From: a virus
Lineage: Duplodnaviria; Heunggongvirae; Uroviricota; Caudoviricetes
Direction: 5' to 3' (one strand)
Virus record (IMG/VR): IMGVR_UViG_2700989169_000006
DNA: 8,988 bases
The translations under genes and the position numbers were made by a program. Below the pieces are notes generated by a model that was not told the origin of the DNA, ran no database searches, and saw nothing but the letters and a program-made list of their open reading frames with translations. Positions 1 through 8,988 of this stretch are shown piece by piece (positions within the stretch are counted from its first letter, which is position 1; each line of letters begins with the position of its first letter).

Positions 1-42
1 CAGATGGCTGCTTAAAAAAAGAACAAATGGTAGTGTCCGCTA

Positions 43-366
43 TTGCCAGTACACCTCAAACTACTCATTGCCAGATGGGAACTGACCGCAGAACAGGCTG
101 TCGCACAGCAGTTAAAAAATCAGGTGTCAAAAGGAAATCTTATCGATACCGGATTTTGTATTTTTGCCCTTAGTAAGCTGGCGATGGCTTTATCCAGTAC
201 GCTTGACTCCATTCCTTTGTCCATGCAACGACAGTTCCCGGATTTAACGCCGCGTCATATTGATCATCTGAAAATCCTTATTGCTAAGGGAGCGAATCAG
301 TGCGCGCGTGCGGGGGATAAATTACCGGATTTACTCGATGAATATATCAGAACAACAACTGAGTAA
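43..366 (+). CDS. nu1: Terminase small subunit (Nu1-like), C-terminal large-subunit-interaction region only; reading frame is closed upstream by stops at 13-15 and 31-33, so the N-terminal DNA-binding part is absent in this frame
   Basis: The translation (...FCIFALSKLAMALSSTLDSIPLSMQRQFPDLTPRHIDHLK...LPDLLDEYI) parallels the lambda Nu1 C-terminus as I recall it (...FCTFVLSRIAGEIASILDGLPLSVQRRFPELENRHVDFLK...IPGLLSEYI). The stop TAA at 364-366 overlaps the start of the downstream A homolog, as in lambda. The ORF-track start at 43 is a TTG, not an ATG. Confidence 0.7.
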   Translation: MPVHLKLLIARWELTAEQAVAQQLKNQVSKGNLIDTGFCIFALSKLAMALSSTLDSIPLSMQRQFPDLTPRHIDHLKILIAKGANQCARAGDKLPDLLDEYIRTTTE

Positions 367-2305
367 TATGATGGTGGCAGTCACTATCGCACTGCAGCCA
401 CTGGTCAGGGTATTGCCGGTGACGGCTGTAGAATGGGCCGATCAAAATTATTACCTGCCTAAAGAATCGTCATACGGTGAGGGGGAATGGAAAACGCTGC
501 AGTTTCAGGTCGCCATCATGAACTGCATGGGCAATGACGAGATTCGTACAGTTAACCTGATTAAATCTGCCCGTGTTGGTTATACAAAAATGGTGCTTGG
601 TGTGATCGGGTATTTTATTGAGCACAAATCCCGCAACACTCTTCTTTTTCAGCCGACGGACTCAGCTGCTGAAGATTTTATGAAGTCTCACGTGGAAGCA
701 ACAATTCGTGATGTTCCTTGCCTGAAAAAACTTTCTCCCTGGCTGGGCCGGAAACACCGGGATAATACGCTCACACTGAAGCGTTTTTCCTCTGGTGTGG
801 GGTTCTGGTGTTTGGGTGGTGCTGCTGCCAAAAACTACCGTGAAAAATCTGTCGATGTGGTCTGCTATGACGAACTCTCCTCGTTTGAACCGGATGTGGA
901 AAAAGAAGGTTCGCCAACACTGCTTGGCGATAAACGTATTGAAGGTTCGGTATGGCCAAAATCCATACGCGGTTCAACGCCAAAAATTAAAGGCTCCTGT
1001 CAGATTGAAAAAGCTGCGAATGAATCTGCGCATTTCATGCGGTTTTATGTCCCTTGCCCTCATTGCGGGGAGGAGCAGTATCTGAAGTTTGGCGATGATG
1101 CGACGTCGTTTGGCCTGAAATGGGAGAAGGGTAAACCGGAAACGGTGTATTACCTGTGTGAACATAATGGCTGCGTGATCCGTCAGTCTGAACTTGATCA
1201 GACCGGGGGGCGCTGGATTTGTGACAATACCGGGATGTGGACGTGTGACGGTCTGACGTTTTTCAGTGCTTCGGGTAATGAAATTCCGCCGCCGCGCTCC
1301 ATCACTTTCCATATATGGACGGCGTACAGTCCGTTCACCACCAGGGTACAGATAGTCTGTGACTGGCTGGATGCACTGAAAGATCCCAACGGCGTGAAAA
1401 CTTTTGTGAACACCACGCTGGGCGAGACCTGGGAAGAGGCCGTGGGCGAAAAACTCGATCACCAGGTACTGATGGATAAGGTTGTGCCTTACACGGCAAC
1501 GGTGCCTGTCCGGGTGGTTTATCTGACGGCGGGCATTGACTCGCAGCGAAACCGTTTTGAGATGTATGTCTGGGGGTGGGCTCCGGGAGAGGAAGCCTTT
1601 CTGGTGGATAAAATCATCATCATGGGACGTCCTGATGAGGAAGAGACGCTGTTACGTGTGGATGCGGCGATCAATAAAAAATACCGCCATGCAGACGGTA
1701 CCGAAATGACCATTTCCCGTGTCTGCTGGGATATCGGGGGGATCGATGGCGAAATCGTGTATCAGAGGTCAAAAAAACACGGTATTTTCCGGGTACTGCC
1801 GGTAAAAGGTGCCTCTGTCTATGGCAAGCCGGTGATCACCATGCCGAAAACCCGCAATCAGCGGGGTGTGTATCTGTGTGAGGTGGGGACGGATACCGCA
1901 AAAGAAATTCTCTATGCCCGAATGAAGGCCGATCCCACCCCTGTGAATGAGGCCACATCGTATGCCATCCGCTTTCCTGATAATCCGGAGATTTTTTCGC
2001 AGACAGAGGCACAACAACTGGTGGCGGAGGAACTGGTGGAAAAGTGGGAAAAAGGAAAGATGCGTCTGTTGTGGGATAACAAAAAGCGGCGTAACGAAGC
2101 GCTGGACTGCCTGGTGTATGCCTATGCGGCATTACGTGTGTCCGTGCAACGCTGGCAACTTGATCTGGCTGGGGGNNNNNNNNNNNNNNNNNNNNNNNNN
2201 NNNNNNNNNNNNNNNNNNNNNNNNNNNNNNNNNNNNNNNNNNNNNNNNNNNNNNCTGCACAACCGACCCTTGAAGAACTGGCAGCGAAGCTGTCCGGAGG
2301 AGTGA
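338..2305 (+). CDS. A: Terminase large subunit (lambda gpA-like; ATPase/endonuclease)
   Basis: The long ORF 281..2305 contains an internal Met at 338 beginning MNISEQQLS..., matching the recalled lambda gpA N-terminus MNISNSQVN.... Many colinear motifs follow: TAVEWAD.NYYLPKES, KNYREKSVDV, DKRIEGSVWPKSIRGSTPK, CPHCGEEQYLKFGD, FVNTTLGETWE, YLTAGIDSQ, KKRRNEALDC. The C-terminus is interrupted by an N-run at 2176-2254, so the end and frame after the gap are uncertain. Confidence 0.93.
   Translation: MNISEQQLSNMMVAVTIALQPLVRVLPVTAVEWADQNYYLPKESSYGEGEWKTLQFQVAIMNCMGNDEIRTVNLIKSARVGYTKMVLGVIGYFIEHKSRNTLLFQPTDSAAEDFMKSHVEATIRDVPCLKKLSPWLGRKHRDNTLTLKRFSSGVGFWCLGGAAAKNYREKSVDVVCYDELSSFEPDVEKEGSPTLLGDKRIEGSVWPKSIRGSTPKIKGSCQIEKAANESAHFMRFYVPCPHCGEEQYLKFGDDATSFGLKWEKGKPETVYYLCEHNGCVIRQSELDQTGGRWICDNTGMWTCDGLTFFSASGNEIPPPRSITFHIWTAYSPFTTRVQIVCDWLDALKDPNGVKTFVNTTLGETWEEAVGEKLDHQVLMDKVVPYTATVPVRVVYLTAGIDSQRNRFEMYVWGWAPGEEAFLVDKIIIMGRPDEEETLLRVDAAINKKYRHADGTEMTISRVCWDIGGIDGEIVYQRSKKHGIFRVLPVKGASVYGKPVITMPKTRNQRGVYLCEVGTDTAKEILYARMKADPTPVNEATSYAIRFPDNPEIFSQTEAQQLVAEELVEKWEKGKMRLLWDNKKRRNEALDCLVYAYAALRVSVQRWQLDLAGXXXXXXXXXXXXXXXXXXXXXXXXXXXLHNRPLKNWQRSCPEE
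2176..2254. other. Run of 79 N (assembly gap or masked sequence) inside the 3' end of the terminase large subunit gene
   Basis: Literal n characters in the sequence. Confidence 1.
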
Positions 2306-2509
2306 ATGGTTACAGTCGCTGAACTGCAGGCGCTGCGTCAGGCGCGCCTTGATTTATTAACCGGTAAACGGGTTGTGTCGGTACAGAAAGACGGTCGCAG
2401 GATCGAATATACGGCAGCGTCCCTGAATGAGCTTAACCGTGCGATCAACGATGCGGAGTCGGTTCTGGGTACGACCCGACGCCGCCGACCGCTGGGAGTG
2501 AGGTTATGA
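2306..2509 (+). CDS. W: Head-tail joining / head completion protein (lambda gpW-like)
   Basis: The 67-aa product contains LLTGKRVVSVQKDGRRIEYTAASLNEL, matching recalled lambda gpW ([27 protein letters not shown]). Its ATG at 2306 directly follows the A stop (TGAATG), and its TGA at 2507-2509 overlaps the B start. Confidence 0.9.
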   Translation: MVTVAELQALRQARLDLLTGKRVVSVQKDGRRIEYTAASLNELNRAINDAESVLGTTRRRRPLGVRL

Positions 2510-3561
2510 AACGAACGCCTGTCCTGATTGATGTGAACGGCGTTCCGCTTCGTGAGAGTCTCAGCTACAACGGAGGCGGCGCAGGATTTGGCGGGCAAAT
2601 GGCAGAGTGGTTACCACCGGCGCAGAGTGCCGATGCGGCCCTGTTGCCTGCATTGCGTCTGGGGAATGCCCGGGCAGATGATCTGGTGCGCAATAACGGT
2701 ATCGCGGCTAATGCGGTGGCCCTGCATAAGGATCATATCGTCGGGCACATGTTTCTTATCAGCTACCGTCTGAACTGGCGTTGGCTGGGGATGCGGGAGA
2801 CCACGGCAAAAAGTTTTGTCGGGGAGGTGGAAGCAGCCTGGTCGGAATACGCAGAAGGAATGTTTGGCGAGATCGACGTGGAAGGGAAACGCACGTTTAC
2901 GGAATTTATCCGTGAAGGGGTGGGCGTGCATGCCTTTAACGGCGAAATCTTTGTGCAGCCGGTCTGGGATACGGAAACCACGCAGTTATTCCGTACGCGT
3001 TTTAAAGCCGTGAGTCCGAAACGGGTGGACACGCCAGGACACGGTATGGGGAACCACTTTCTGCGGGCCGGGGTTGAGGTCGATCGGTATGGGCGGGCGA
3101 TTGCGTACCATATCTGTGAGGATGATTTTCCGTTCTCTGGTGCCGGACGCTGGGAGCGGATCCCGCGTGAGCTTCCCACCGGGCGTCCGGCCATGCTGCA
3201 TATTTTTGAGCCGGTGGAGGACGGGCAGACCCGTGGGGCTAATCAGTTTTACAGCGTAATGGAGCGGATGAAGATGCTGGACTCCCTGCAGGCCACGCAG
3301 CTTCAGTCGGCCATTGTGAAGGCGATGTATGCAGCCACAATCGAAAGTGAACTTGATACCGAAAAGGCATTTGAATATATCGCGGGGGCACCGCAAGGTC
3401 AGCAGGATAATCCGCTTATTAATATTCTGGAGAAGTTCACCCGCTGGTATGACACGAATAACGTGACGCTGGGCGGTGTTAAAATTCCGCACCTTTTTTC
3501 CTGGCGATGCGCTGAACCTGCAGACAGCGCAGGATTCAGACAATGGATTTTCGGCGCTTGA
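2506..3561 (+). CDS. B: Portal protein (lambda gpB-like), N-terminal segment in frame 1; homology to gpB ends near 3497 where the frame breaks
   Basis: The translation shows GNARADDLVRNNG, HAFNGEIFVQ, SPKR, IPRELP, FEPVEDGQTRGANQFYSVMERMKMLDSLQATQLQSAIVKAMYAATIESELDT, matching recalled lambda gpB. After ...GGVKIPHLF the frame-1 translation (SWRCAEPADSAGFRQWIFGA) no longer resembles gpB. Confidence 0.85.
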   Translation: MKRTPVLIDVNGVPLRESLSYNGGGAGFGGQMAEWLPPAQSADAALLPALRLGNARADDLVRNNGIAANAVALHKDHIVGHMFLISYRLNWRWLGMRETTAKSFVGEVEAAWSEYAEGMFGEIDVEGKRTFTEFIREGVGVHAFNGEIFVQPVWDTETTQLFRTRFKAVSPKRVDTPGHGMGNHFLRAGVEVDRYGRAIAYHICEDDFPFSGAGRWERIPRELPTGRPAMLHIFEPVEDGQTRGANQFYSVMERMKMLDSLQATQLQSAIVKAMYAATIESELDTEKAFEYIAGAPQGQQDNPLINILEKFTRWYDTNNVTLGGVKIPHLFSWRCAEPADSAGFRQWIFGA

Positions 3562-4159
3562 ACAGGCGCTGCTGCGGTATATTGCAGCCGGTCTTGGCGT
3601 TTCCTACGAACAGTTGTCCCGTGATTACTCGAAGGTCAGTTACTCAAGTGCCCGCGCCTCCGCCAATGAGTCGTGGCGCTATTTTATGGGGCGGCGAAAA
3701 TTTATTGCGGCCCGGCTGGCCACGCAGATGTTTTCCTGCTGGCTGGGAGGGGNNNNNNNNNNNNNNNNNNNNNNNNNNNNNNNNNNNNNNNNNNNNNNNN
3801 NNNNNNNNNNNNNNNNNNNNNNNNNNNNNNNNNNNNNNNNNNNNNNNNNNNNNNNNNNNNNNNNGGCGCGTTCAGCCTGGTCACGGGCAGAGTGGATTAG
3901 CTCCGGAAGAATGGCCATTGACGGGCTCAAGGAGGTCCAGGAATCGGTGATGCGCATTGAGGCCGGACTGAGCACGTATGAGAAAGAACTGGCACTGATG
4001 GGCGAAGATTATCAGGACATTTTCCGCCAGCAGGTCAGGGAATCCGCAGAGCGCGAAAAAGCCGGACTCTCACGTCCGGTGTGGATAGCCCAGGCGTATC
4101 AGCAGCAGATAGCGGAGAGTCGCAGGCCGGAAGAGGAGACAACATCACGTGAGACGTAA
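3476..4159 (+). CDS. B: Portal protein (lambda gpB-like), C-terminal segment in frame 2; its real continuation begins at about 3497, not at the GTG at 3476
   Basis: The translation PGDALNLQTAQDSDNGFSALEQALLRYIAAGLGVSYEQLSRDYSKVSYSSARASANESWRYFMGRRKF...SGRMAIDGLKEVQESVMRIEAGLSTYEKE matches the recalled lambda gpB C-terminal half. It is interrupted by an N-run at 3753-3864. Confidence 0.85.
   Translation: MLKFRTFFPGDALNLQTAQDSDNGFSALEQALLRYIAAGLGVSYEQLSRDYSKVSYSSARASANESWRYFMGRRKFIAARLATQMFSCWLGGXXXXXXXXXXXXXXXXXXXXXXXXXXXXXXXXXXXXXXARSAWSRAEWISSGRMAIDGLKEVQESVMRIEAGLSTYEKELALMGEDYQDIFRQQVRESAEREKAGLSRPVWIAQAYQQQIAESRRPEEETTSRET
3753..3864. other. Run of 112 N (assembly gap or masked sequence) inside the portal gene
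   Basis: Literal n characters in the sequence. Confidence 1.
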
Positions 4160-5687
4160 TCTTTCACATATTATCGCTGCGGCATTCAATGAGCCGCTGC
4201 TTCTGGAGCCCGCCTATGCGCGGGTTTTCTTTTGCGCGCTCGGGCGTGAGATGGGCGCAGCAAGCCTTTCGGTACCGCAACAGCAGGTACAGCTTGACGC
4301 TCCCGGGATGCTGGCTGAAACGGACGAGTACATGGCCGGAGGCAAACGACCTGCCCGTGTTTACCGGGTGGTGAACGGTATTGCTGTACTGCCGGTGACC
4401 GGCACGCTGGTACACCGGCTGGGTGGCATGCGGCCATTTTCCGGAATGACTGGCTATGACGGCATTGTCGCCTGTCTTCAGCAGGCAATGGCGGACACTC
4501 AGGTACGGGGCGTACTGCTGGACATTGACAGTTCTGGCGGGCAGGCCACCGGCGCGTTTGACTGCGCTGACATGATTTACCGTCTCCGGCAGCTGAAGCC
4601 TGTCTGGGCACTGTGCAATGACACGGCCTGTTCAGCCGCCATGTTACTGGCATCGGCCTGCTCCCGACGGCTGGTTACCCAGACATCCCGTATCGGCTCC
4701 ATTGGGGTGATGATGGGCCATGTCAGCTATGCCGGTCATCTGGCACAGGCCGGTGTGGATATCACGCTGATTTACGCCGGATCGCACAAGGTGGATGGCA
4801 ATCAGTTTGAATCCCTGCCAGCAAAGGTTCGCCAGGACATGCAGCAGCGCATTGATGCGGCGCGCCGGATGTTTGCTGAAAAAGTGGCGATGTATACCGG
4901 TTTATCTGTGGATGCGGTTATGGGAACAGAGGCCGCCGTTTTTGAAGGTCAGTCCGGTATTGAGGCCGAACTGGCGGATGAATTAATCAATGCGTCGGAC
5001 GCCATCAGCGTGATGGCTGCGACGCTGAACACACACGATACAGGAGGCACTATGCCGCAATTAACTGCAACGGAGGCTGCCGCGCAGGAGAACCAGCGAG
5101 TGATGGGGATCCTGACGTGTCAGGAAGCGAAAGGACGTGAACAACTGGCCACGATGCTGGCAGGGCAACAGGGTATGAGCGTTGAGCAGGCCCGGGCGAT
5201 TCTGGCCGTGGCGGCACCGCAACAATCTGGTGTATCTGCGCAGAGTGAAGCCGATCGCATTATGGCATGTGAAGAGGCGAAAGGACGTGAACAACTGGCG
5301 GCAACGCTGGCGGCGATGCCGGAGATGACGGTGGAAAAAGCCCGTCCGATTCTGGCTGCTTCACCGCAGGCGAATGCCGGACCCTCACTTCGTGATCAGA
5401 TTATGGCCCTGGATGAGGCAAAAGGGGCAGAGGCGCAGGCTGAAAAACTGGCGGCCTGTCCGGGGATGACCGTGGAGAATGCCCGGGCTGTACTGGCGGC
5501 AGCCTCANNNNNNNNNNNNNNNNNNNNNNNNNNNNNNNNNNNNNNNNNNNNNNNNNNNNNNNNNNNNNNNNNNNNNNNNNNNNNNNNNNNNNNNNNNNNN
5601 NNNNNNNNNNNNNNNNNNNNNNNNNNNNNNNNNNNNNNNNNNNNNNNNNNNNNNNNNNNNNNNNNNNNNNNNNTGATGCGGACGTGA
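4149..5687 (+). CDS. C: Prohead protease / minor capsid protein C (lambda gpC-like, S49/ClpP-type peptidase) with the scaffold (Nu3-like) region in its C-terminal part; 3' end uncertain because of the N-run at 5508-5673
   Basis: The N-terminal region ...AAFNEPLLLEPAYARVFFCAL..., NGIAVLPVTGTLV, GAFDCADMI, KPVWAL, SRRLVTQTSRIGSIGVMM, ITLIYAGSHKVDGN and AARRMFAEKVAMYTGLSV match recalled lambda gpC. The start is a GTG at 4149, overlapping the portal end by 11 nt, with GAGGAG upstream at about 4132-4137. Confidence 0.88.
   Translation: MRRNLSHIIAAAFNEPLLLEPAYARVFFCALGREMGAASLSVPQQQVQLDAPGMLAETDEYMAGGKRPARVYRVVNGIAVLPVTGTLVHRLGGMRPFSGMTGYDGIVACLQQAMADTQVRGVLLDIDSSGGQATGAFDCADMIYRLRQLKPVWALCNDTACSAAMLLASACSRRLVTQTSRIGSIGVMMGHVSYAGHLAQAGVDITLIYAGSHKVDGNQFESLPAKVRQDMQQRIDAARRMFAEKVAMYTGLSVDAVMGTEAAVFEGQSGIEAELADELINASDAISVMAATLNTHDTGGTMPQLTATEAAAQENQRVMGILTCQEAKGREQLATMLAGQQGMSVEQARAILAVAAPQQSGVSAQSEADRIMACEEAKGREQLAATLAAMPEMTVEKARPILAASPQANAGPSLRDQIMALDEAKGAEAQAEKLAACPGMTVENARAVLAAASXXXXXXXXXXXXXXXXXXXXXXXXXXXXXXXXXXXXXXXXXXXXXXXXXXXXXXXXMRT
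5052..5687 (+). CDS. nu3: Scaffolding protein (Nu3-like) from an in-frame internal start within C; 3' end uncertain (gap)
   Basis: An in-frame ATG at 5052 is preceded by a strong AGGAGG at 5042-5047. The downstream sequence (ENQRVMGILTCQEAKGREQLA...PGMTVE.AR.ILAAA.PQ) parallels the recalled lambda Nu3 region (ENSRIMGILNCEEAHGREEQARVLAETPGMTVKTARRILAAAPQ). Lambda is known to express Nu3 from an internal in-frame start in C. Confidence 0.5.
   Translation: MPQLTATEAAAQENQRVMGILTCQEAKGREQLATMLAGQQGMSVEQARAILAVAAPQQSGVSAQSEADRIMACEEAKGREQLAATLAAMPEMTVEKARPILAASPQANAGPSLRDQIMALDEAKGAEAQAEKLAACPGMTVENARAVLAAASXXXXXXXXXXXXXXXXXXXXXXXXXXXXXXXXXXXXXXXXXXXXXXXXXXXXXXXXMRT
5097..5507 (+). repeat. Tandem in-frame repeat array (at least 3 copies, about 141-159 bp each) encoding the Nu3/C C-terminal motif; the array runs into the N-gap
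   Basis: The 23-mer gcgaaaggacgtgaacaactggc occurs identically at 5127-5149 and 5277-5299, exactly 150 bp apart. The protein-level units are RVMGILTCQEAKGREQLATMLAGQQGMSVEQARAILAVAAPQQ / RIMACEEAKGREQLAATLAAMPEMTVEKARPILAASPQ / IMALDEAKGAEAQAEKLAACPGMTVENARAVLAAAS. Confidence 0.75.
5508..5673. other. Run of 166 N (assembly gap or masked sequence) at the 3' end of C/Nu3, directly after the tandem repeat array
   Basis: Literal n characters in the sequence. Confidence 1.
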
Positions 5688-5746
5688 AAATGCTCATGGC
5701 CATGCCATGAAGTCAGTGCTGACCATCAATATGAGGTTTTTACAAT

Positions 5747-6094
5747 ATGGTAACGAAAACCATCACTGAACAGCGTGCGGAAGTACGTATTTTTGCCGGT
5801 AATGATCCGGCCCATACCGCCACAGGCTGCAGCGGGATTTCCTCGGCAACACCGGCTCTGACGCCCCTGATGCTGGATGAGGATACCGGGAAACTGGTGG
5901 TCTGGGACGGACAGAAGGCAGGCCATGTGGTTGGCATACTGGTACTGCCGCTTGAAGGTACAGAGACGGTGCTGACGTATTACAAGTCGGGGACCTTTGC
6001 GACGGAGGCCATCCACTGGCCTGAGAGAGTGGATACACACAAAAAGGCGAATGCCTTTGCCGGCAGTGCCCTGAGTCACGCAGCGCTGCCGTAA
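5747..6094 (+). CDS. D: Head decoration protein (lambda gpD-like)
   Basis: The 115-aa product contains NDPAHTAT, TPLMLD, KLVVWDG, YYKSGTF, WPE and AFAG, matching recalled lambda gpD. GAGG lies about 10 nt upstream of the ATG. Confidence 0.92.
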   Translation: MVTKTITEQRAEVRIFAGNDPAHTATGCSGISSATPALTPLMLDEDTGKLVVWDGQKAGHVVGILVLPLEGTETVLTYYKSGTFATEAIHWPERVDTHKKANAFAGSALSHAALP

Positions 6095-6151
6095 CATTTT
6101 ATCAGGTCACTGCGGTAGCCTGACTGATTTCTGAATGAAAGGAACTGATTT

Positions 6152-7180
6152 ATGGGATTGTTTACGACCCGCCAGTTACTCGGTTATACCGAACAAAAAG
6201 TTAAATTTCGTGCGCTGTTTCTGGAGCTGTTTTTCCGCCGTACGGTGAATTTCCATACCGAAGAGGTAATGCTGGACAAAATTACCGGAAAAACGCCGGT
6301 GGCGGCCTATGTCTCCCCGGTTGTTGAAGGAAAGGTGTTGCGTCACCGTGGCGGTGAAACTCGTGTACTGCGCCCGGGCTACGTTAAGCCGAAACACGAA
6401 TTTAATTACCAGCAGGCGGTGGAGCGTCTTCCCGGTGAAGATCCGGCCCAGCTGAACGGCCCGGCTTACCGTCGCCTGCGTATCATCACCGATAACCTCA
6501 AACAGGAAGAGCACGCCATTGTCCAGGTGGAAGAGATGCAGGCGGTGAATGCCGTGCTGTATGGCAAATACACCATGGAAGGAGAGCAGTTTGAAACTGT
6601 TGAGGTCGATTTTGGCCGGTCGGTGGGAAATAACATTACGCAGGCAGGAGGGACGGAGTGGAGCGCTCAGGACCGCGATACCTTTGATCCGACGCATGAT
6701 CTGGATGCGTACTGTGATTTTGCTTCCGGCACCATCAATATTGCCATTATGGATGGTAAGGTCTGGCGTCTGCTGAATGGCTTTAAGCTGTTCCGCGAAA
6801 AACTGGATACCCGTCGTGGCTCAAATTCACAGCTGGAAACGGCAGTGAAAGACCTGGGGGCGGTGGTGTCCTTCAAAGGGTATTATGGTGATCTGGCAAT
6901 CGTGGTGGCAAAAACGTCCTATGTGGCAGAGGACGGTACCGAAAAACGTTATCTGCCGGACGGCACACTGGTACTGGGAAATACGGCCGCAGAGGGTATT
7001 CGTTGCTACGGTGCCATTCAGGATGCGCAGGCATTGTCTGAAGGCGTGGTGGCGTCTTCCCGTTATCCGAAACACTGGCTGACCGTGGGTGATCCGGCGC
7101 GTGAATTCACCATGACGCAGTCCGCGCCGCTGATGGTGCTGCCGGATCCGGATGAGTTTGTGGTGGTGCAGGTGAAATAA
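6152..7180 (+). CDS. E: Major capsid protein (lambda gpE-like)
   Basis: The 342-aa product is colinear with recalled lambda gpE: PGYVKPKHE, AIVQVEEMQAVNAVLYGKYTMEGE, NNITQAGGTEWS, EKLDTRRGSNSQLETAVKDLG, LPDGTLVLGNT, GDPAREFTMTQSAPLMVLPDPDEFVVVQ. AAAGGA lies upstream of the ATG. Confidence 0.95.
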   Translation: MGLFTTRQLLGYTEQKVKFRALFLELFFRRTVNFHTEEVMLDKITGKTPVAAYVSPVVEGKVLRHRGGETRVLRPGYVKPKHEFNYQQAVERLPGEDPAQLNGPAYRRLRIITDNLKQEEHAIVQVEEMQAVNAVLYGKYTMEGEQFETVEVDFGRSVGNNITQAGGTEWSAQDRDTFDPTHDLDAYCDFASGTINIAIMDGKVWRLLNGFKLFREKLDTRRGSNSQLETAVKDLGAVVSFKGYYGDLAIVVAKTSYVAEDGTEKRYLPDGTLVLGNTAAEGIRCYGAIQDAQALSEGVVASSRYPKHWLTVGDPAREFTMTQSAPLMVLPDPDEFVVVQVK

Positions 7181-7186
7181 TCCGTG

Positions 7187-7213
7187 AGCGGGAGCTAAAT
7201 GCTCCCGTTTTTC
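7187..7213 (+). terminator. Putative intrinsic (Rho-independent) terminator or attenuator hairpin directly downstream of the major capsid gene
   Basis: Perfect inverted repeat cgggagc (7189-7195) / gctcccg (7201-7207) with a 5-nt loop (taaat), followed by TTTTT (7208-7212), 7 nt after the E stop codon. Confidence 0.45.
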
Positions 7214-7231
7214 ATTCAATCAGGAGCGGGT

Positions 7232-7618
7232 ATGGCTACGAAAGAAGAAAACCTGAAACGTCTTTGTGAGCTGGCTGAGAGGCTGGGGCGTGAACCGGAT
7301 GTCTCCGGTAGTGCGGCAGATATTGCGCAGCGAGTGGCGGAACTGGAGGAAGAGCTTGGAGATGCGGGGGAGGTCGCAGAGCCGGATACGTACTCACCAT
7401 CGAAAGATGATCCGACCGCGCATAAAGGCGAGTCAGTTCCTGAACAGCCAGGCATTGTTACCGGAGACGAAACGGGGCAGGTTACGGTGGTGGCACTGGC
7501 GACACTGCATACAAAATGTAATGGTTCAGTGATATTTGTTTCACCGGGAACGTCGTTTCGTGTTTCTGCTGAGGTGGCTGCCAGCATGGCGGCAGGTGGT
7601 CTGGCAAAAAGGCAGTAA
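7232..7618 (+). CDS. FI: DNA packaging protein FI (lambda gpFI-like)
   Basis: The C-terminal region VTVVALATLHT...VSPGTSFRVSAEVAASMAAGGLAKRQ matches recalled lambda gpFI (VTVVALVKLHT...VLPGTAFRVSAGVAAEMTERGLARMQ), and the N-terminal region has the same acidic/alanine-rich character. The start is chosen at ATG 7232, preceded by AGGAG at 7222-7226; the ORF-track start at 7199 lies inside the terminator region and is less likely. Confidence 0.85.
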   Translation: MATKEENLKRLCELAERLGREPDVSGSAADIAQRVAELEEELGDAGEVAEPDTYSPSKDDPTAHKGESVPEQPGIVTGDETGQVTVVALATLHTKCNGSVIFVSPGTSFRVSAEVAASMAAGGLAKRQ

Positions 7619-7629
7619 CAGGAGATGTC

Positions 7630-8007
7630 GTGGACGGTTTCGATAATCTGTTTGATGCTGCGCTTGCCGGTGTCAATGAAGTCATTCTCCGTGATATGGG
7701 GATCAGCGCCGTCATTACGTCCGGAGAACTTGAGGGGACACACCTGACAGGGGTTTTTGATGATCCCGAAAGTATTTCTTTTGTTGCCGGGGGGATCCGG
7801 CTTGAGGATTCCTCACCGTGCCTGTTTGTGAAAACGGCAGATATATCGCAGTTACGCCGTCAGGATACGTTAACTATCGGGGATGATTCTTTCTTTGTGG
7901 ATCGTATTACTCCGGATGACGGGGGATGCTGTTATATCCGGTTAAGGCGGGGCAGTCCTGCCCCACAGAATAATGCCAGAATGAGGCGATATGATGAAGG
8001 GACTTGA
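7630..8007 (+). CDS. FII: Head-tail connector / head completion protein FII (lambda gpFII-like)
   Basis: DGFDNLFDAA, GVFDDPESISF, SSPCLFVKT, QLRRQDTLTIGDDSFFVDRITPDDGG match recalled lambda gpFII (ADFDNLFDAA, GVFDDPENISY, SSPSLFVRT, QLRRGDTLTIGEENFWVDRVSPDDGG). The start is a GTG at 7630 with GGAG at 7621-7624. Confidence 0.88.
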   Translation: MDGFDNLFDAALAGVNEVILRDMGISAVITSGELEGTHLTGVFDDPESISFVAGGIRLEDSSPCLFVKTADISQLRRQDTLTIGDDSFFVDRITPDDGGCCYIRLRRGSPAPQNNARMRRYDEGT

Positions 8008-8578
8008 GAATGCCATCCGCAATCTGAACAGCCTCGATACCCGCATGGTGCCACAGACCAGCGCATGGGCGGTAAACCGTGTGGCGGCAAAGATTGTTTC
8101 TGTCGCCACACGGCAGGTTGCGCAGAATACCGTTGCCGGGGATAACCAGGTGAAAGGTATTCCCCTGAAAACGGTCAGGGAGCGTGTCAGGCTGCTTAAA
8201 GCCAGCCCCTCAGGAAAAATGTATGCCCGCATGCGTGTTAACCGGGGTAACCTGCCCGCCATTAAGCTGGGTACCGCACAGGTCAGACTGGCCCGCTCCC
8301 GGCATGGCAGCAACTCACGTCATCGTGGCAGCGTACTGAAAGTGGGGAAATACCTTTTCCGGGATGCGTTTATTCAGCAACTGGCGAATGGTCGCTGGCA
8401 TGTGATGCGGCGTATTGACGGCAAAAATCGTTACCCCATTGATGTGGTGAAAATCCCGATGTCCGGACCGCTGACACAGGCATTTGAAGATGCCCGCGAC
8501 CGCATCATTGCTGCGGAAATGCCGAAACAGCTGGGGTATGCCCTGAAACAACAACTGAGGTTACATCTGAGTAAATGA
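7991..8578 (+). CDS. Z: Tail assembly/completion protein Z (lambda gpZ-like)
   Basis: KGLENAI, VNRVA, AFIQQLANGRWHVMRRIDGKNRYPIDVVKIPM and LGYALKQQLR match recalled lambda gpZ (KGLEQAV, INRVA, AFIQQLKNGRWHVMQRVAGKNRYPIDVVKIPM, LGYALQHQLR). It overlaps the FII 3' end; the start is ATG 7991 or 7994. Confidence 0.88.
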   Translation: MMKGLENAIRNLNSLDTRMVPQTSAWAVNRVAAKIVSVATRQVAQNTVAGDNQVKGIPLKTVRERVRLLKASPSGKMYARMRVNRGNLPAIKLGTAQVRLARSRHGSNSRHRGSVLKVGKYLFRDAFIQQLANGRWHVMRRIDGKNRYPIDVVKIPMSGPLTQAFEDARDRIIAAEMPKQLGYALKQQLRLHLSK

Positions 8579-8976
8579 ACCGACACACACAAATCCGTCA
8601 GAGCGTGCTGGCACGCCTTCGGGAACAGTGTGGAGACAGCGCCACGTTTTTTGACGGGCTTCCGGCATTTATTGATGCGCAGGAACTGCCCGCCGTGGCG
8701 GTGTGGCTGAGTGATGCGCAGTACACCGGAAAAATGACGGATGAGGACGACTGGCAGGCTGTTCTGCATATTGCCGTTTTCGTCCGTGCACAGGCGCCGG
8801 ATTCTGAGCTGGATACGTGGATGGAGAACACCATATTTCCGGCCATGAAGGATATTCCGGTGCTTTCCGGACTCATCGACACCATGATCCCACTCGGTTT
8901 TAACTATCAACGTGATAATGAGATGGCCACCTGGGCGATGGCGGAAATCACGTACCAGATCACGTACACGAATTAA
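8575..8976 (+). CDS. U: Tail terminator / tail tube completion protein U (lambda gpU-like)
   Basis: ATFFDG, PAVAVWL, AQYTG, PDSELDTWME and ITYQITY match recalled lambda gpU (ATFFDG, PAVAVYL, AEYTG, PDSELDAWME, LTYVITY). Its ATG overlaps the Z stop (ATGA). Confidence 0.9.
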   Translation: MNRHTQIRQSVLARLREQCGDSATFFDGLPAFIDAQELPAVAVWLSDAQYTGKMTDEDDWQAVLHIAVFVRAQAPDSELDTWMENTIFPAMKDIPVLSGLIDTMIPLGFNYQRDNEMATWAMAEITYQITYTN

Positions 8977-8988
8977 GGAGGTGGTAAT
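8977..8988 (+). promoter_or_regulatory. Ribosome-binding site (AGGAGGTGG) for the next gene, expected to be the major tail protein (V-like) starting just beyond the window
   Basis: GGAGGTGG immediately follows the U stop (TAA 8974-8976). In lambda, V follows U by a few nucleotides. Confidence 0.4.

Follow-up and report, generated by a model that had tools for sequence, protein, structure and literature searches.

In phage lambda, the N-terminal segment of the small terminase subunit Nu1 is a winged-helix domain that binds cosB, and the C-terminal part of the protein serves self-association and the binding of the large subunit gpA. The insertion sequence IS600 was first described in Shigella. 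It is a member of the IS3 family with a 3-nt target sequence (PMC9397093). We analysed an 8,988-nt stretch of a Caudoviricetes record (IMGVR_UViG_2700989169_000006), hereafter the window, which starts within an IS600 copy inserted in a small terminase gene (terS); the supposed truncated Nu1 at its left edge is an ordinary insertion junction that has already been sequenced. The reading we favor, with a probability of roughly 95%, is that IS600 transposed into terS of a Shigella flexneri prophage, that the window begins inside the element, and that most of the genomes concerned later suffered a deletion.

The IS600 end and the terS fragment at the window start

Direct reading of the window placed a TAA at 13-15 and a TAG at 31-33, both in frame 1, where positions 1-366 translate as QMAA(stop)KKNKW(stop)CPLLPVHLKLLIARWEL...TTTE(stop) and the TTG at 43 is the earliest in-frame start. 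The initial annotation had reported the two stops and the ORF from this TTG, and had seen nothing resembling Nu1 in the other two forward frames; we confirmed both points, as translation of frames 2 and 3 at the window start gave no terminase-like sequence. The ORF is a hybrid of 5 IS-encoded codons followed by the 3' part of terS.

The product of window 58-363 matched Pfam Phage_Nu1 (PF07471; E = 5.1e-19, profile positions 86-163 of 164) and the PHROG family phrog_57, "terminase small subunit" (E = 1.6e-37, positions 88-189 of 199), and the terS 3' fragment also matched a second PHROG "terminase small subunit" family, phrog_1790. This similarity is far above chance and is limited to the C-terminal half of Nu1-type small terminases. 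It had been described as beginning at about nt 37; the similarity itself is real but native terS begins at nt 59, and the alignment then quoted was partly wrong, since the residues CPLLPVHL (nt 34-57), and with them its LLPVHL, are encoded by the right inverted repeat of IS600. The N-terminal HTH DNA-binding domain is missing from the ORF, with the IS in its place, and no cos site (cosN plus cosB) lies upstream of the terS fragment within the window. The ORF is a gene fragment and no functional member of the Nu1 family, though gene callers routinely report the 107-aa hybrid as a Nu1-family protein. The terS stop (364-366) lies beyond the start of terL, so that the two genes overlap with terS just upstream, and the terL counterparts in the related loci L005-L014 match Pfam GpA_ATPase and GpA_nuclease.

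When window 1-500 was compared by BLAST with complete E. coli genomes and phage records, the query split in two, 1 to about 59 and 58-500, the latter matching annotated small and large terminase subunit genes. The first 59-60 nt were found in 86 Stx-phage records, and matches to 1-500, which numbered as many as 43 in one E. coli genome, also occurred on plasmids. A full copy of the element, of 1264 bp, is present in a phage record (L002 1295-2558), where it starts TGAGGTAGCC... and terminates ...GTACACCTCA. RefSeq carries elements with 100% identity to this copy under the label "IS3-like element IS600 family transposase", and the name IS600 was taken from that annotation. Its orfA (100 aa) matches HTH_Tnp_1 (E = 1.5e-20), and its orfB (272 aa, L002 1697-2515), which ends ...REKYHQMAA, contains HTH_21, rve (E = 3.2e-26), rve_3 and rve_2 domains; the window's share of these transposase genes is confined to the final four orfB codons and their stop. 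The right repeat, which terminates ...ACACCTCA at window 58, is found at all IS600 right ends in loci L002-L014, and the left repeat begins TGAGGTAGCC... in related loci, giving the element TG...CA ends. The TAA at 13-15 is the orfB stop, and the last base of the TAG at 31-33 is also the first of the right inverted repeat. The apparent in-frame stops are a property of the IS, not of a mutated gene.

The intact gene used for comparison was terS of E. coli FDAARGOS_943 (L001 3800-4309; 510 bp, 169 aa), to which, together with the start of terL, window 58-500 is 100% identical. There was identity to intact terS from window 58 on and none before it. The BLAST alignments begin at 58 because the final IS600 base, A58, is by chance the same as terS nt 202; native terS resumes at window 59, which is terS nt 203, in codon K68 of 169. 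The view that terS is truncated and without its N-terminal DNA-binding part was borne out by this alignment. Both sides of the element can be read in two loci (L014 and L012), where the left junction is ...GAAGAGAAAC/TGAGG and the right junction CCTCA/AACTACTC, against GAAGAGAAACTACTC in the intact gene; AAC (terS nt 203-205) is duplicated there. Three further IS600 copies in the loci are likewise flanked by 3-bp duplications (ATC, TAT and GAC).

Table 1. Features at the left end of the window (window coordinates, + strand throughout)
Feature	Position	Strand	Description	Evidence
IS600 (IS3 family) right end	1..58	+	last 58 nt of the element	identical to L002 2501-2558
IS600 orfB, 3' end	1..15	+	last four codons and TAA stop (...YHQMAA, stop)	frame 1 reads QMAA(stop); full orfB has the same end
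IS600 right terminal inverted repeat	33..58	+	GTGTCCGCTATTGCCAGTACACCTCA, ending ...CA	imperfect reverse complement of the left repeat TGAGGTAGCCTGAGTTTAACGGACAC
Hybrid ORF	43..366	+	107 aa; TTG start at 43 inside the IS600 repeat, TAA stop at 364-366	ORF listing
Target-site duplication, right-hand copy	59..61	+	AAC, 3 bp, terS nt 203-205	junctions in L014 and L012
terS 3' fragment, Nu1-type	59..366	+	codons 68-169 and stop; C-terminal region only	identity to intact terS; Pfam; PHROG
terL, large terminase, gpA type	338..2305	+	interrupted by the N run at 2176-2254	start equivalent to that of annotated terL in L001

Two arrangements of the junction in complete genomes

The exact 40-mer spanning the junction was found in S. 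flexneri SFBU1023 and in the 4.44-Mb ECMA0423, which is labelled "E. coli". The exact hybrid ORF has been recorded in 362 assembly blocks; the longest contig is above 1 Mb in 27 of the 362 and only 5-10 kb, comparable to the window, in 171. The prophage with this junction is found throughout S. flexneri, and many complete genomes share the junction.

Ten chromosomal loci were taken with 10-kb flanks, and two arrangements were seen among them. In type B (L012, CP000266.1; L014, UGYS01000001.1) the start of terS, its first 205 nt and the upstream cos-like region adjoin the left repeat of IS600, with the duplication of AAC noted above; this is plain transposition into terS. In type A (L003-L011 and L013) the left repeat instead adjoins the spanin gene Rz at codon 134 (...CGGGACGG-G/TGAGG) with no matching duplication; the AAC duplication is absent from these loci because of a deletion. 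The left flank of type A is 100% identical to that of type B up to exactly the junction base, and what type A lacks corresponds to L014 2959-6176, a stretch of 3.2 kb that contains 1.26 kb of another, inverted IS600 copy as well as the cos-like site and the 5' part of terS.

The history we propose has two steps. A 1264-bp IS600 copy transposed into the Nu1-type terS of a lambda/phage-21-like prophage in S. flexneri; it entered behind terS nt 205, reading in the direction of the late operon, and duplicated AAC. A second, IS-associated event then removed the approximately 3.2 kb between Rz codon 134 and the left end of IS600 in most of the genomes with the junction, taking out the cos-like site together with the terS 5' part. 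This deletion may have arisen by recombination between two IS600 copies, or by an IS-mediated adjacent deletion.

Several further features of these loci were observed. At the left junction of type A a single G, belonging to neither sequence, stands between the last Rz base (...CGGGACGG) and the left repeat of IS600 (position 1558 in L004, 8752 in L005-L009, L011 and L013, and 7457 in L010). In some genomes a further element has inserted into the IS600 copy in terS (L004 1934-3175; L012 7665-8878; L014 6344-7607 and approximately 7630-8880). One of these nested interruptions is a second IS600 (duplication TAT), and the others, at different positions, consist of another IS3-family element that shares 97.8% identity with E. 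coli copies; the nested insertions are independent events. Some 7 kb upstream, type A loci contain an additional Rz/Rz1 fragment in inverted orientation beside another IS (L006 1413-1648, also L008, L009 and L011); it is 98.7% identical to the prophage's own Rz. It was considered as the reciprocal product of an inversion, and this was rejected, as the fragment extends across the junction point and therefore represents a second copy of Rz.

With the left junction lying outside the window, we assigned the window's source to an arrangement by identity alone, and it is probably type A. In none of the four aligned blocks (about 8.6 kb, outside the N runs) does the window differ from the type A loci L006, L008, L011 and L013 (100% identity), whereas the type B loci show 5 mismatches to it in 1-2171 and 24-25 in 5674-8988. 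A genome in which the insertion is equally real but the 5' part of terS and cos still stand just to the left of the IS is an unlikely source. It is true that at least two complete or near-complete records have the type B form and that the window, covering only the last 58 nt of the IS, does not reach its own left junction; set against this are the mismatches to type B beside perfect identity to four type A loci, and the terL frame of the window, which after the first N run ends with the frameshifted tail typical of type A, the indel itself falling under the N run.

The lost N-terminal region, the cos-like site and the fate of the fragment

The terS of the window is without codons 1-67. The N-terminal domain is present in the intact relative and, in type B, to the left of the IS. 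In BLASTP the intact TerS and lambda Nu1 share 45% identity between residues 73-167 and 86-180, respectively (E = 4e-27); only this C-terminal part aligns, and the N-terminal 68 aa have no significant direct match to lambda Nu1. When these 68 aa were searched separately, Pfam returned only a weak match to Sigma70_r3 (E = 0.046) and the N-terminal part of Phage_Nu1 went unmatched, NCBIfam gave no match, and the sequences of solved structures gave chance matches only. The 68 aa did match phrog_57 over profile positions 12-87 (E = 2.2e-11), and residues 1-68 of lambda Nu1 match the same profile over 11-75 (E = 8.6e-26). This shared profile is the one link between the two, and it suggests that the lost segment may be equivalent to the winged-helix domain of Nu1; the 5' part of terS that was lost or displaced would on this alignment encode the N-terminal domain at the profile positions of the lambda DNA-binding domain.

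Two other PHROG families divide the intact protein between them. The N-terminal half of TerS (L001 3800-4306) is matched by phrog_7289 (91 positions, "unknown function"; E = 2.5e-58) and its C-terminal half by phrog_1790 (114 positions). These look like families built from fragments of split small terminases, and the "unknown function" label of phrog_7289 could be resolved through such an origin.

Both L001 and L014 have, about 200 bp upstream of terS, a cos-like site (GGGCGG...CTATTTATGAAAATTTT) that could be aligned to the lambda left end. Three copies of the repeat ACCGGACAT come after it, of which one is inverted (region L001 3545-3740 and L014 5715-5910). The site and the repeats are candidates for cosN and cosB. 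A search of the intact relative for the exact lambda cosN, GGGCGGCGACCT, with at most 2 mismatches found nothing, and the alignment later showed the diverged cos-like site.

The terS fragment retains only the part of Nu1 for self-association and binding of the large subunit, and so it could not direct terminase to cos. A prophage in this state would be unable to recognize or cut cos and to package its DNA, and would be cryptic; the damage to its portal gene and, in type A, to terL points in the same direction.

We also considered a decoy role, in which the C-terminal fragment, produced from the TTG at 43 or through read-through of the IS, might bind the large terminase of lambdoid phages entering the cell and so prevent the packaging of their DNA. 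Such a fragment would be a domesticated, dominant-negative anti-phage remnant rather than debris. It keeps the region that matches the self-association and gpA-binding parts of Nu1, its DNA has not diverged from the intact gene (100% identity), and it has been kept in hundreds of assemblies, but retention in a clonal species and full identity are equally expected from recent, neutral inheritance. Moreover, a search of window 1-500 for an outward promoter or a terminator found none, there is no obvious ribosome-binding site by eye ahead of the TTG, and the neighboring terL and portal genes are themselves decaying. We regard a decoy role as very improbable.

Draft quality, further decay and comparison with known systems

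The window is a draft scaffold whose three N runs (2176-2254, 3753-3864 and 5508-5673) are scaffold gaps. The stretches that fail to align and contain these runs measure 83, 118 and 166 nt, against 26, 58 and 110 nt in the identical complete genomes. The alternative that the N runs are masks of unchanged length was rejected, each unaligned stretch being 56-60 nt longer than the sequence it replaced. Immediately to the left of the first two runs the window carries G-rich miscalls (...CTGGGGG and ...GGGAGGGG), and the third run breaks the frame of the S49 protease gene artificially. The window ends (8983-8988, ...GGAGGTGGTAAT) with the first two bases of the start codon ATG of the major tail gene V, and no IS was evident at this right end, where all complete genomes continue into the native tail gene V.

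Such a draft might have joined an IS600 end wrongly to the middle of terS, or its first 58 nt might be sequencing error, given that its N runs exceed the true length by 56-60 nt and that two of them have miscalls next to them; the chance of this is negligible, since the identical junction occurs in many independently assembled complete chromosomes and the type B junction has the 3-bp target duplication expected of real transposition. A point mutation or frameshift in a contiguous terS, for which only the presence of stops ahead of the Nu1-like ORF would speak, is just as improbable, as the sequence before nt 59 has no alignment with terS in any frame and these 58 nt are identical to an IS600 end, including the C-terminus and stop of orfB.

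The initial annotation had offered a frameshift or truncation, a recombination junction or a local sequence error as explanations. Neither a frameshift inside a contiguous gene nor a local error fits these results, the sequence to the left of nt 59 being the right end of IS600 in many independent assemblies, and the recombination junction came nearest, with IS600 itself unrecognized. Upstream, there is neither an intact N-terminus joined in frame nor another small-terminase gene immediately adjacent. Both halves of its suspicion, a decaying prophage or a low-quality draft, proved right: the window has the three N runs, and the same prophage carries a portal frameshift, an altered terL tail and IS insertions.

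The portal gene has a real +1 frameshift: 3494-3499 reads T6 where the intact E. coli relative has T5, and the gene is thereby broken into two ORFs, 2506-3561 and 3476-4159. This frameshift is common to all S. flexneri loci and is therefore no artefact of this draft. In type A loci, a 1-nt deletion with nearby substitutions converts the last 30 residues of terL into an out-of-frame tail, giving 636 instead of 642 aa (L006 12130-12206; window 2172-2305); the window reads the same tail after the N run, which hides the indel. Within the window only the portal frameshift is to be taken as real, and the frame oddities at N runs should not be interpreted. In three loci (L003 1999-4169, L004 4060-6230 and L010 10296-12206) terL shows two single-base gaps relative to the window, which leave ORFs of 201 and 397 aa; these are either further decay or homopolymer errors in the assemblies.

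The finding is ordinary and already known, the locus being present in hundreds of public assemblies, and it carries little biological weight beyond a further case of IS expansion eroding Shigella prophages.

Compared with IS600, the part visible in the window and the full copy agree in the right end, the TG...CA repeats, the orfA and orfB domains, the length of 1264 bp and the 3-bp duplication. No difference was seen within the window's visible part, and in some related genomes the copy in terS is interrupted by another IS. Compared with lambda Nu1 and gp1 of phage 21, the C-terminal two thirds of the protein are homologous, and as in those phages terS overlaps a gpA-type gene and heads a lambda-like head-gene module; the window's gene differs in being without codons 1-67, and the N-terminus of the intact relative is too diverged for pairwise detection. 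The three ACCGGACAT repeats differ from the aligned lambda sequence, which suggests that the cosB specificity may differ from that of lambda. The locus is typical of the IS-driven decay of cryptic prophages in Shigella and shows no difference from it: here too there are several and nested ISs, a deletion bounded by an IS, and frameshifts in terL and the portal gene.
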